Assembly (NCBI GenBank): GCA_964632315.1
Contig: CAZWEM010000067.1
Location: 1-17,401, forward strand
From: an uncultured archaeon
GTDB taxonomy: Archaea > Asgardarchaeota > Lokiarchaeia > Sigyniarchaeales > SOKP01
Reading direction: 5' to 3'
DNA: 17,401 bases
This document shows, in pieces, positions 9,459 through 13,686 of the stretch. The notes beneath the pieces are model-generated. The model worked only from the letters and a program-made list of their open reading frames with translations, did not search any database and was not told where the DNA came from. The stretch's first letter is position 1; every line of letters begins with the position of its first letter. The position numbers and the translations under genes were made by a program.

Positions 9459-9977
9459 TTATAATTTGCTACCACAGAAAGCACAATATACCGCAGTATC
9501 TCTACTTATCGGAGTTCCACAATTAGGACAGAATTGACTTTTTCCTACAGGTTCTGGAATAAATTTTGGTTCTTGTTGATGATTCACGATCTCCATCGAT
9601 TTTCCTTCACCTGTGTCAGGAGAAAAATTTCCCCTTAATCTACCTTCAGCTTTCAAATCAAGAATAATAGCACGAATATCCTTTACTGAAATTCCCGTGT
9701 TAGCACTTATTTCCTCAATTGACACGTTTGGATTAATTTTGAATTCTTGGGCAACCACGTTTCTTAATTTACTTTTATTTACCAAAGCAGCAATCTGACT
9801 ACTAGCTATCGCCGCGCCAATTCCAATCCATAGAAAACCCATCCAATTAATGCCAAATTGCCAAAAACCATGAAGAAAGGCATCTATGCCCCAATAAAAG
9901 AACATTCCCGCAATTAAGAGCGCACAAATTGAAGCCCCATGTGAATATTGATCTTTATTGTACTTAATTTTTCTCAA
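9459..9977 (-). CDS. Membrane protein: 2 TM helices, PCI-like winged helix, C-terminal zinc ribbon (paralog A)
   Basis: TTG start preceded by GAGG. Two hydrophobic segments, SIEEISANTGISVKDIRAIILDLKAEGRLRG, and CPNCG-x9-CAFCG. Confidence 0.85.
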   Translation of the reverse strand: MRKIKYNKDQYSHGASICALLIAGMFFYWGIDAFLHGFWQFGINWMGFLWIGIGAAIASSQIAALVNKSKLRNVVAQEFKINPNVSIEEISANTGISVKDIRAIILDLKAEGRLRGNFSPDTGEGKSMEIVNHQQEPKFIPEPVGKSQFCPNCGTPISRDTAVYCAFCGSKL

Positions 9978-10146: not shown

Positions 10147-10641
10147 ATGCATTATGAAAAAAATCAATATTCCAATGGAGCGAGTATTTGTGGATTTATT
10201 ATCGCAGGTATGTTCTTATACTGGGGAATAAATACCCTGTTTGGATTTAGTCCACATCCTTTTAATCTTTGGTGGTTAGGGTTCATTTGGATTATGATTG
10301 GGCTCGCAATCATTTCTGGACAAGTAGCTTCGCTTTCAAATCGAGGCAGATTAAGAAGTATTGTGAGAGATTACTTTTTAGAAAATCCGGAAGCAAGCAT
10401 CGAAGAAATATCTGCAAAAACGGGAATCACGATCAAGGATATCCGTGCCATAGTATTGGATTTAAAAGCACGTGGAGAACTCAGGGGAAAATTCTCAACT
10501 AAAACCGGACAAATGAAACCAGTTCTTGTGGAACCCGAAACACCTGAAACTCCAAAAGCATCGTTCTGTCCCAATTGTGGAACTCCCATGAAAGATGAAT
10601 CCGCAATGTATTGCGCTTATTGTGGAGCTCGTCTTAAGTAA
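10147..10641 (+). CDS. Membrane protein: 2 TM helices, PCI-like winged helix, C-terminal zinc ribbon (paralog B)
   Basis: Aligns end to end with 9459..9977 (QYSxGASIC, IAGMFxYWGI, SIEEISAxTGIxxKDIRAI, FCPNCGTP). Confidence 0.87.
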   Translation: MHYEKNQYSNGASICGFIIAGMFLYWGINTLFGFSPHPFNLWWLGFIWIMIGLAIISGQVASLSNRGRLRSIVRDYFLENPEASIEEISAKTGITIKDIRAIVLDLKARGELRGKFSTKTGQMKPVLVEPETPETPKASFCPNCGTPMKDESAMYCAYCGARLK

Positions 10642-10651
10642 AAATAAAAAA

Positions 10652-12313
10652 TTAAAATCTTTTTTCAAGATTTTTTATTCTTTCTTCTAACCCAGAAATA
10701 CTTCTTTTTATATCGCTCAAGTTCTCATCTAGCATGAGGCGAAATCTCTCGTAAATATTCATAATCCCCTCTTTTCTCCCTATTTTATCCATTAAATCAA
10801 TTTCGCGCTTAAAAGTCTCGATATACTTGTATAAATTGCTGCAAAAGAGCTCAAATTTATCCTTATCAAATTCCATTCCTAATTCACGTGAGAGATTCTT
10901 TTCAGCTAAATCTTGCCAATTCACATCTAAACCTTTAATGGGAATGATTGGAATTGAAAATTTATCCGCAAGTTGCAGTTCATTCGCGCAATCAATAGAA
11001 TTAAATAAAGACTTATTAGTGGCTATAAACAATAATAACTGGCATTTTTGAACTGTTTCTAACATCCATTCATCAATATTACCTGCAAGATCTTCCTCAC
11101 AGAAAAATACTTCAGAAATTTCTTTTTGTTTCCCTAAATACTCCACTAGATCACCAATACGATATGCATCAAAATCAATTACCGCATGAGAAATAAAGAT
11201 TTTTATCGTAGCTTTCTTTCTCAAGTAATCTCTGATTAAATCAGGTACCTTTTGAATAATTGTATTTTCTTCACTACTTAAAGGATTACCATTAAGACTT
11301 AATTGCGTCAATTCTTTAAGGGCCCATATTTGAGTGGGAATTTCCTTGAATTGGTTATTGCTTAAATCTAATTTTTCAAGAGAGGTTAAATTCAAGAAAG
11401 ATTCCGGGAGAACAGATAACTTGTTGCCACTTAGTAATAAAACTTTTAGATTTTTTAATTCTGTAATGGAATCGGGTATAGTTTCGATTTTATTCTTAGT
11501 AAGAGAAATGTATCTTAGATGCTGTAAATTTCCTATATCCTCTGGAAGGTTCACCAAATCCGTATCATTTACTACCAAATGAATGATCTTTCCATTAAAG
11601 ATTCGAACCTTTACTCCGAATCCACCTGGGTCTCTCCAAGGCTCGTCAATTGAATTTAACCCACTAGGAATGACTCGATTAAGGCCCTCTTCATGCCATG
11701 ATATCCTATTTACTATGGCAATTTGATCGAGTGGAAGCCTAAATTGAAAATGTAAAGTAAAAGTAGGATCAGAGATTTTTACGCTTTTTTGATCTAAGGT
11801 TCTAAGAACATTCATATTAGTCGGAGTCAATTCAATGGTCTGTATGCGCTCATTTAAAATTAACTCTTTCAAATCATTTAGTGCTAATAACCATTCAGGT
11901 ACGATCTTTATTCGGTTTCCGGTTAAATTTAAAATTCTAAGACCTTTAAACTCTTTTATATCCTCTGGAATGGAAGTTAAATAACTCTCTGAAAATATCA
12001 ATTCTTTTATGTAATTTAAATCCTTTAACCATTCCGGAATTAAACCATTCTTAGGAACCTTTAAAAGAAATCGTTCAATAGTACGCAATTTTCTCAATAA
12101 ATCGCCCAAAAGGCTAACTTTATCCGAGTCTAAATCTAAAACGCTTAAATCAATTCCAATCATTATGATCAAACCGTCATCATTGAAATTGAATAGGTTT
12201 TCCACCTTAGAATAAGACTTCATATCGACTCTCCTAAAGGGAACTCCACAAATTGATTCGATATCTTCTAAAATTTTTCGCTCATCCTTTTGAATTCGCT
12301 TATCATGACTCAT
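10652..12313 (-). CDS. Leucine-rich-repeat protein with a C-terminal TIR domain and terminal coiled coil
   Basis: 23-residue LxxLxLxxNxLxxLPxxIxx repeats in two blocks. TIR motifs KIFISH (aa 371-376), CQLLLFIATNKS, SIDCANEL (Glu445) and IPIIPI. Heptad tail LSDIKRSISGLEERIKNLE. No TM segment or signal peptide seen. Confidence 0.9.
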   Translation of the reverse strand: MSHDKRIQKDERKILEDIESICGVPFRRVDMKSYSKVENLFNFNDDGLIIMIGIDLSVLDLDSDKVSLLGDLLRKLRTIERFLLKVPKNGLIPEWLKDLNYIKELIFSESYLTSIPEDIKEFKGLRILNLTGNRIKIVPEWLLALNDLKELILNERIQTIELTPTNMNVLRTLDQKSVKISDPTFTLHFQFRLPLDQIAIVNRISWHEEGLNRVIPSGLNSIDEPWRDPGGFGVKVRIFNGKIIHLVVNDTDLVNLPEDIGNLQHLRYISLTKNKIETIPDSITELKNLKVLLLSGNKLSVLPESFLNLTSLEKLDLSNNQFKEIPTQIWALKELTQLSLNGNPLSSEENTIIQKVPDLIRDYLRKKATIKIFISHAVIDFDAYRIGDLVEYLGKQKEISEVFFCEEDLAGNIDEWMLETVQKCQLLLFIATNKSLFNSIDCANELQLADKFSIPIIPIKGLDVNWQDLAEKNLSRELGMEFDKDKFELFCSNLYKYIETFKREIDLMDKIGRKEGIMNIYERFRLMLDENLSDIKRSISGLEERIKNLEKRF

Positions 12314-12446: not shown

Positions 12447-12806
12447 TTAAGATGAGATATTAATGGATTTATTAATTATTTCAAAAACCTCTTGTACCTC
12501 AACTTGATCAACAGTAAGGAGGATGATTAATTTCTCGAGGATTTTCATGGTTAAAATGTAATAATTATCTGAGTGAATTATGTTAAAATCAGGATCATGC
12601 AACCCTATTGATTCTGTAATTTCTTCTGCTAATTCATATAATTGGGAAACATTTAAAGATATAGATGCTTTATTAAATTCTTCTTCATTGATGTAAGATT
12701 TCATGACCGCACCATTCTCAGATGAGACTAATATGAAATATACTGAAGAACCTAACTCCTCTATTAATCTCTGAATGGTAGTTTCTAAATCTAAAATAAC
12801 AGTCAT
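12447..12806 (-). CDS. Roadblock/LC7-like (profilin-like fold) protein
   Basis: 119 aa with the pattern helix, ILVSSENGAVMKS hairpin, long helix, three strands, C-terminal helix. Confidence 0.72.
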   Translation of the reverse strand: MTVILDLETTIQRLIEELGSSVYFILVSSENGAVMKSYINEEEFNKASISLNVSQLYELAEEITESIGLHDPDFNIIHSDNYYILTMKILEKLIILLTVDQVEVQEVFEIINKSINISS

Positions 12807-12894: not shown

Positions 12895-13686
12895 TCAGGG
12901 GATTAAATATTTCTCGATATGGGACTCGAATTTTCGGAATGCGCTAACATGCCCGTGAAAATTTTGTAATTGAGTCGAAAATGTATTGAGAAAGTCTTCT
13001 GCAATGAGTTCAGCGAAATAATCAATATCAAAGCTATCTTCACGATTCTCAATTAGATAAGCGAATATGATTCCATTTTTCAATTTCAAGTGAAATTGGA
13101 TTCGTTCAAAATTGATTGTTTTGAGAGAGTCTCCGCTGGTTTTCCCAATAATTTCGTTAGAGAAAAGGAGTATAGCAGAGATAAATCCTGATATTTGGAT
13201 GGCATTTTGGTTCAAATAATCACTGCTAGTCTTAGAGAATAAACAATGTCCATCTTCACTTATGATAAATAAGGCGGAAAGTCTTGGAAAGTTGATAATT
13301 TCCTTGCATAGTGAATTTAAATTAAGATGAGAATTATCTGAACAATACATATTTAAGATTTTAGATGAAAAAGAACAAAGATCATCATATCGGGTAAGCA
13401 CGTCTTTTTTATTTAAATAAAAGATTGCTAATAATTCAGATTCAATATCGAAAAAATGAATGTATAGAGTATAAGAACCCACCAGATCAATAATTTTACC
13501 CTCACGTTTTGCTATGATCCTTTTCTTATATCCCCGAATCAAGCTATTTAACATGGCGTCACTCATCCCCTTCAAGAAAATAACCGTGGTGGCTCCATGA
13601 CTTATAGAAACTAAGCCTAAACCATGTAATTGGAGGGACCAAGAGTCCACCATTGAATTTTCGTGGGAGTAATCTAAAACAATCAT
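12895..13686 (-). CDS. Longin-like domain protein (clear C-terminal domain, possibly a second degenerate N-terminal one)
   Basis: LFIISEDGHCLFSK...ISGFISAILLFSNEI...LKTINF...IIFAYLI...IAEDFLNTF...FHGHVSAFRKFE is the pattern typical of Asgard longin-like domains. Confidence 0.75.
   Translation of the reverse strand: MIVLDYSHENSMVDSWSLQLHGLGLVSISHGATTVIFLKGMSDAMLNSLIRGYKKRIIAKREGKIIDLVGSYTLYIHFFDIESELLAIFYLNKKDVLTRYDDLCSFSSKILNMYCSDNSHLNLNSLCKEIINFPRLSALFIISEDGHCLFSKTSSDYLNQNAIQISGFISAILLFSNEIIGKTSGDSLKTINFERIQFHLKLKNGIIFAYLIENREDSFDIDYFAELIAEDFLNTFSTQLQNFHGHVSAFRKFESHIEKYLIP

Follow-up and report, generated by a model that had tools for sequence, protein, structure and literature searches.

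TIR domains are an immune currency common to bacteria, plants and animals. The TLR/MyD88 pathway is the classical case of homotypic TIR–TIR recruitment, and plant TIRs have been reported to have 2′,3′-cNMP synthetase activity. In the αC motif SxWCxxEL, the Trp four residues before the Glu lines the nucleotide pocket. NADase activity requires this Glu, whose conservation exceeds 90% in enzymatic TIR groups (PMC7075850). Because the TLR1/2/6/10 group likewise conserves it at more than 90% (PMC7075850), we regard the Glu as necessary for, rather than diagnostic of, NADase activity. According to a 2026 preprint, TLR TIRs, that of human TLR4 among them, produce cADPR in a Glu-dependent manner (10.64898/2026.04.20.719644); this makes it more likely a priori that TIRs with the Glu are enzymes. 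Archaeal TIRs have barely been studied, accounting for 118 of the approximately 26,000 domains in a 2020 survey (PMC7075850). A survey of Asgard defence mentions TIR only within the names of PADLOC/DefenseFinder systems and does not discuss LRR-TIR proteins (PMC11291487). We searched the literature for LRR-TIR proteins of Asgard archaea, of Lokiarchaeota or of archaea in general; none of the papers searched describes the family analyzed here, or Asgard TM-TIR proteins.

We analyzed a 17,401-nt stretch of DNA (hereafter, the window), contig CAZWEM010000067.1 of assembly GCA_964632315.1, from an uncultured archaeon (Asgardarchaeota; Lokiarchaeia; Sigyniarchaeales; SOKP01). The window is AT-rich (GC 0.26–0.40), and its longest minus-strand ORF encodes a 553-aa protein, P0001 (Table 1). 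A preliminary description, made from the sequence alone, had read P0001 as a soluble protein with LRRs followed by a TIR and a helix, in the domain order of Toll-like receptors and lacking a TM helix or NTPase. Pfam, hydropathy and a structure model all bear this out. The LRRs are strong in Pfam (LRR_14, E 4.5e-22; LRR_8, E 4.1e-21), which detects no NTPase, Roc, COR or TM-associated family in P0001. Neither Pfam nor NCBIfam finds an NB-ARC or NACHT P-loop NTPase, and NCBIfam returns generic LRR similarities only, far under cut-offs. Since the most hydrophobic 19-aa stretch scores just 1.24, P0001 has no TM helix or signal anchor; lacking these and a signal peptide, its LRRs must be cytosolic. 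The predicted structure is a confident solenoid (pLDDT above 90 over aa 10–350), running from four LRRs through a 77-aa insert to five LRRs, a linker helix, the TIR and a long helix (aa 510–552). Hydrophobic residues in the terminal helix, as read from the sequence, recur at a regular spacing of 3–4. A homodimer prediction for aa 355–553, run without controls, gave a score of 0.02, which speaks neither for self-association nor against it. Structurally, the solenoid is closest to the LRR of C. tepidum Roco (Foldseek E 1e-13 to 6hlu), Leptospira LRR proteins, SHOC2 and LRRK2. Unlike the Roco proteins, however, P0001 has neither a Roc GTPase nor a COR domain, and the TIR stands in their place.

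Table 1. Features of the LRR-TIR locus and of related or neighboring genes. Locations without a prefix are positions in the window. Mean column entropies are over 78 full-length homologues, in an alignment that mixes several paralogue lineages.
Feature	Location	Strand	Mean entropy (bits)	Details
P0001, LRR-TIR-helix protein, complete gene	10652..12313	-		stop codon 10652-10654; full-length homologues 47-92% identity
aa 1-78, N-terminal helix/strand cap	12080..12313	-	1.95	continuous with solenoid; model pLDDT above 90
aa 79-165, LRR block 1	11819..12079	-	1.89	four 23-aa repeats from aa 79, 102, 125, 148; concave face hypervariable
aa 166-242, insert between LRR blocks	11588..11818	-	2.06	helical and beta-hairpin; least conserved
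aa 243-357, LRR block 2	11243..11587	-	1.31	five repeats from aa 243, 266, 289, 312, 335; last three better conserved
aa 358-369, linker helix, LRRs to TIR	11207..11242	-	0.51	conserved; DLIRDYLRKKAT
aa 370-505, TIR	10799..11206	-	0.59	betaA FISH; BB-loop motif FCEEDLAGNID; alphaC motif SIDCANEL
Glu445 codon	10979..10981	-		aligned with TIR alphaC catalytic-position glutamate; SIDCANEL = aa 439-446
aa 506-553, C-terminal long helix	10655..10798	-	1.26	heptad spacing; Y521, E522, R525, L526 invariant
Zn_Ribbon_1 protein gene	9459-9977	-		divergent paralogous pair with next
Zn_Ribbon_1 protein gene	10147-10641	+		directly downstream of LRR-TIR gene
P0122 gene	L002:562-2253	+		Glu kept (SPDCKFEL)
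P0123 gene	L003:634-2121	+		Tyr at Glu position (SSDCKLYI); BB loop shortened
N6-DNA methylase gene	L013:5442-7544	+		equivalents in L008, L015, L016, L017, L018, L024; GNAT, acyl-CoA synthetase, Alba, enoyl-CoA hydratase genes alongside
Membrane TIR gene, window's genus and order	L028:948-2591	+
Membrane TIR gene, window's genus and order	L028:2779-5982	+
Membrane TIR gene, window's genus and order	L029:949-2583	+
Membrane TIR gene, window's genus and order	L029:2880-6095	+
Membrane TIR gene, window's genus and order	L032:2080-4008	-
Membrane TIR gene, window's genus and order	L030:772-4392	+
G265/G261 tandem pair, shorter member				547/544 aa; anchor, WD40/PQQ propeller, TM 369-387, TIR 397-532
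G265/G261 tandem pair, longer member				1067/1071 aa; anchor, 7 LVIVD repeats, TSP3, TM about 890-910, TIR about 916-1055
SIR2_2-bearing ORF of G000	C4:88021-88368
SIR2_2-bearing ORF of G000	C16:56021-56410
SIR2_2-bearing ORF of G000	C72:4169-4519
SIR2_2-bearing ORF of G000	C7:93523-93900

The identity of the C-terminal domain is not evident from standard profiles. No Pfam TIR model matches whole-length P0001; aa 355–553 alone align with TIR_2 at 24.0 bits (E 5.7e-5), below the 28-bit cut-off, and no curated TIR profile exceeds its gathering score for this protein. TIRs were absent from the results of PDB sequence searches that used either the single C-terminal region or a narrow profile of orthologues. 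Among the 78 full-length homologues, 62 match TIR_2 at E ≤ 0.01 (best, 8.2e-9), and the relatives P0155, P0212 and P0124 pass its cut-off. A broadened profile of 42 divergent domains of the same TIR subtype (34–60% identity to the query) reaches TIRs in the PDB: Cat1 (E 7e-4), TLR6 (0.003) and C. elegans TIR-1 (0.035), with weaker matches to TLR2/1/10, RPS4 and AbTIR. Because most homologues match TIR_2 and the broadened profile finds solved TIRs, we conclude that the domain is a genuine but divergent TIR. The preliminary description had staked its reading on a TIR fold, and the domain does model as one, with the flavodoxin-like alternating β/α arrangement (βA-αA ... αE) and with enzymatic TIRs as the best structural matches. 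Alignments with Cat1, TLR6, TIR-1 and TLR2, together with column counts, locate the βA (F-I-S-H/Y), BB-loop and αC (S-x-x-C-x-x-E-L) motifs.

Profile alignments pair the Glu of the family motif S-x-D-C-x-x-E-L with that of Cat1 (DWCWDEL), TLR6 (EWCHYEL) and TIR-1 (DWVHKEL, which we take to be the motif holding E642 in SARM1). P0001 therefore carries a glutamate at the catalytic αC position of NAD+-cleaving TIRs. Conservation of Glu445 in orthologues, on which the preliminary description also depended, is extreme: it is invariant in the 78 full-length homologues, and no other column is as conserved as the Glu when 149 near-complete domains, taken from 140 cluster representatives, are compared (143/149), with S439 (142/149) and C442 (139/149) next. 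The Trp found four residues before the Glu in Cat1, TLR6 and TIR-1 is Asp441 in P0001, and Asp occupies this column in 106 of the 149 domains. With the Trp of SxWCxxEL replaced, P0001 lacks the pocket Trp of NAD+-cleaving TIRs and its pocket is atypical. P0001 differs from the enzymatic TIRs (RUN1/RPV1/RPS4, SARM1/TIR-1, SPARTA TIR-APAZ, AbTIR, Cat1 and Thoeris ThsB) in other respects too. Its TIR is only 13–24% identical to theirs and sub-threshold for TIR_2, and the protein comes without an Argonaute, SAM/ARM, NB-ARC, CARF or ThsA partner.

Column entropy across the 78 homologues sets a variable sensor against a nearly constant TIR output (Table 1). Within each repeat, the most variable residues are the solvent-exposed concave x positions of LxxLxLxxN, with 2.6–2.8 bits in repeats 1–6 and 1.6–1.9 bits in the last three; framework positions have 0.2–1.9 bits and the convex side 0.9–1.9 bits. 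Such a distribution marks a binding surface that has diversified while the effector stayed fixed. The preliminary description had proposed a one-component receptor, and the part of that proposal that assigns sensing to the LRRs and output to the TIR fits these values. Because the alignment mixes paralogue lineages, the LRR variability may represent old specialization instead of an arms race, and the very high conservation of the TIR, surface loops included, would also fit a conserved protein–protein interface. STAND/NLR proteins with TIRs (plant TIR-NB-LRR, bacterial Avs/bNACHT) likewise join a repeat sensor to a TIR effector and show a variable sensor surface with a conserved effector. In contrast to these, P0001 has no NB-ARC/NACHT NTPase switch, and its LRR-then-TIR arrangement reverses the order of plant TNLs.

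The family is large, undescribed and lineage-restricted, being almost confined to one class of Promethearchaeota. A word-indexed search found more than 547 relatives. Among the homologues, P0002–P0011 are close orthologues with 88–92% identity. Those with names all come from Promethearchaeota, Lokiarchaeota, ‘Hermod’ or ‘Odin’ MAGs, and a few are already auto-named ‘TIR domain-containing protein’. An exhaustive search with the TIR-core profile gave 844 clusters at 50% identity, 383 of these at E ≤ 1e-10; the subtype TIR is mostly C-terminal, in proteins of 400–1500 aa. At E ≤ 1e-10, it is present in 101 of 400 genomes of the phylum, comprising 85/134 in the window's family, 10/19 in the order's three other families, 4/5 in two further families of the class, and about 1/240 elsewhere. 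Copies per genome reach at least 10, these counts being lower bounds since 10 candidates were scored per genome. Of the 42 genomes of the genus, about 11 contain a match of orthologue grade (E < 1e-70), and presence is patchy even at this level. Three copies are present in G143, a closed genome on one contig from the same order. The 34 loci that come from named genomes all belong to Promethearchaeota MAGs. Another record carrying an Asgard-type LRR-TIR gene, DATKTW010000024.1, is titled ‘Candidatus Nanopelagicaceae bacterium’; its contig (21,601 bp) has the same length as contig C24 of G256, a genome placed in the window's genus, and the record is probably a mislabelled or mis-binned MAG. Metagenomes of salt marshes and marshes from several studies contain the window DNA itself, and no RNA run is listed among the sequencing runs.

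The genome from which the window derives (G000) has two further copies in tandem on contig C33, P0123 upstream and P0122 downstream, 18 bp apart. TIR_2 run across this whole genome detected none of the three TIR copies (0/3), and hence the family escapes routine annotation. Locus L033 has a similar pair, one canonical and one degenerate TIR, in proteins of about 800 aa each, and paired E-values point to such pairs in several other genomes. Some relatives carry two to four subtype TIRs per polypeptide, among them P0124 (482 aa), P0219 (604 aa) and P0126 (946 aa).

The same TIR serves as the C-terminal module of many sensors. It is also fused to WD40+LRR, TPR+LRR, SBBP and LVIVD+TSP3 modules, and eleven long representatives have an N-terminal hydrophobic anchor plus one strong TM helix 8–30 residues before the TIR. 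Two genomes of the window's genus, G265 and G261, each encode a tandem pair of single-pass TIR proteins, and G250 has a NosD/β-helix polytopic protein with the TIR at its end. The single-pass relatives have the same TIR subtype and retain the Glu; by their predicted topology, they are putative receptors with a cytoplasmic TIR in Asgard archaea. Cytosolic and extracytoplasmic sensors share the subtype TIR, which is therefore a common output module. We tentatively extend this, at somewhat less than an even chance, to a receptor repertoire of Lokiarchaeia-type Asgard archaea built on one private TIR output. It would comprise cytosolic LRR/WD40/TPR sensors, single-pass type-I receptors (signal anchor, β-propeller ectodomain, TM helix and cytoplasmic TIR) and polytopic sensors, all feeding one TIR-based network, either NAD+-derived or TIR–TIR.

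Comparison with Toll-like receptors can be drawn on both levels. Like these receptors, P0001 has N-terminal LRRs and a C-terminal TIR and keeps the αC Glu, as TLR1/2/6/10 do; the family profile has the TIRs of TLR6 and TLR2 among its best sequence matches, and relatives of P0001 in the same genus show a true ectodomain–TM–TIR topology. Unlike them, P0001 has no signal peptide, extracellular LRR ectodomain or single TM helix before the TIR, its LRRs being cytosolic. Compared with Box 2 (RDxxPG), its BB loop (EEDLAG) has one residue fewer and no Pro, and its membrane relatives carry β-propeller ectodomains, not LRRs. Outside the subtype, bacterial TIRs (Cat1 and ThsB-type clusters) and animal TIRs are about equally close, by sequence profile and by language-model features. 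Given this lack of special affinity to eukaryotic TIRs and the near confinement of the subtype to one class, P0001 alone has no bearing on the origin of eukaryotic TLRs, and the relevance to eukaryotic innate receptors claimed in the preliminary description finds no support.

Gene neighborhoods were compared between the window and 20 related loci. The neighbors of P0001 are metabolic or unknown, and none recurs near the related genes. A PADLOC search, suggested in the preliminary description, returned nothing for P0001 and no convincing defence match among the window neighbors. No ThsA-like or other effector adjoins P0001, and the signal-sensing effector (SIR2-SLOG, Macro or TM) that stands beside the TIR gene in Thoeris is absent. 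Synteny divides the related loci into two or more other groups, in which most neighbors are housekeeping genes: N6-DNA methylase, GNAT, acyl-CoA synthetase, Alba and enoyl-CoA hydratase in group A (two genera), and flavoprotein, class-V aminotransferase, PAC2 and MobA-like proteins in group B. Overall, housekeeping genes predominate in the neighborhoods and synteny holds across genera, in contrast to mobile defence islands, and we reject a defence-island context. Also rejected is a conserved module with the co-oriented upstream ORFs at 12447–12806 and 12895–13686 (with a faint longin match), which do not recur in the 20 loci.

In one paralogue lineage, spanning seven genomes of two genera, the LRR-TIR gene is convergent with that of a 685–700-aa N6-DNA methylase (N6_Mtase/Eco57I-like). 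Beside P0001, a divergent pair of paralogous genes encodes small proteins that are hydrophobic in their N-terminal part and end in a zinc ribbon (Zn_Ribbon_1); this pair is not conserved beside LRR-TIR relatives. Elsewhere in G000, unlinked to the LRR-TIR genes, are four large ORFs (757–1355 aa) with SIR2_2, possibly NAD+-linked defence or signaling proteins.

The explanation we favor, as slightly better than an even bet, makes P0001 a cytosolic LRR sensor of one component: assembly would activate its TIR, which most probably processes NAD+. A ligand would bind to the variable concave side of the two-block solenoid, the nearly constant, divergent TIR would provide the output, and the family-specific C-terminal helix would probably aid self-association. 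Most likely, ligand-driven TIR–TIR assembly would complete the active site around Glu445, and the assembled site would cleave NAD+, causing depletion or yielding an ADP-ribose-derived signal in a conflict or stress response. The enzymatic activity, oligomerization and biological (immune) role that we thus infer can be weighed against other accounts of the same features. Retention of the Glu for structure alone is conceivable if the TIR is a non-enzymatic homotypic assembly module, recruiting proteins with the same TIR subtype (paralogues, TM-TIR receptors or TIR-only proteins) into signaling complexes. The near-invariant TIR surface suits such a role, as do the many same-subtype proteins that coexist per genome, some without the Glu, the tandem pairing of canonical and degenerate TIRs (P0122/P0123 and L033), and the more than 90% conservation of the Glu in TLR1/2/6/10 as well. 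We nevertheless consider this account unlikely. The Glu tops conservation over 149 divergent copies, to a degree beyond what structure alone would lead one to expect; enzymatic TIRs are the closest in structure; every prokaryotic TIR characterized so far is, to our knowledge, an enzyme; and TLR TIRs themselves are reported producers of cADPR in a Glu-dependent manner.

A role outside conflict seems less probable still. Here, P0001 would be a housekeeping or cell-biological regulator, with a Roco/SHOC2-like LRR binding an endogenous partner (for instance a small GTPase or a protein of the cytoskeleton or of trafficking) and a TIR, whether or not it is an enzyme, coupling it to NAD+/nucleotide metabolism or complex assembly. 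This would accord with the structural proximity of the solenoid to C. tepidum Roco, SHOC2 and LRRK2, with the stable housekeeping positions of two paralogue lineages across genera, and with the absence of PADLOC defence-model matches. One homologue adjoins a divergent Arf/Ras-type GTPase, and the window copy lies downstream of the faint longin-like ORF, yet these links are not conserved, as the window and the 20 related loci have no neighbor in common. Moreover, a hypervariable concave face is unexpected for one fixed endogenous partner, and the family is multi-copy, variable in architecture and patchily distributed even within a genus. Replacement of the active-site Trp by Asp also raises the idea that the TIR is an enzyme acting on nucleic acids or on another nucleotide, not NAD+. 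We judge this very improbable: the top matches, in structure as well as in sequence, are without exception TIRs that use NAD+, and P0001 shows no nucleic-acid-binding feature. An assembly-activated, NAD+-processing LRR sensor thus remains our preferred reading of P0001.

A large TIR family that goes undetected by standard tools (Pfam TIR_2, PADLOC) thus exists in the archaeal lineage that serves as a model for eukaryogenesis, and annotation and defence-finder pipelines will overlook it. Its architectures pair a sensor with an output and extend to membrane forms that resemble receptors. Should the TIR prove active, P0001 would allow ligand-gated TIR activation to be studied in a single, simple protein that has no NTPase switch, and its unusual active site, with Asp for Trp, may yield a different product. 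If the receptor repertoire proposed above is real, it would be an archaeal counterpart of TLR/IL-1R/SARM logic, whether ancestral or convergent.
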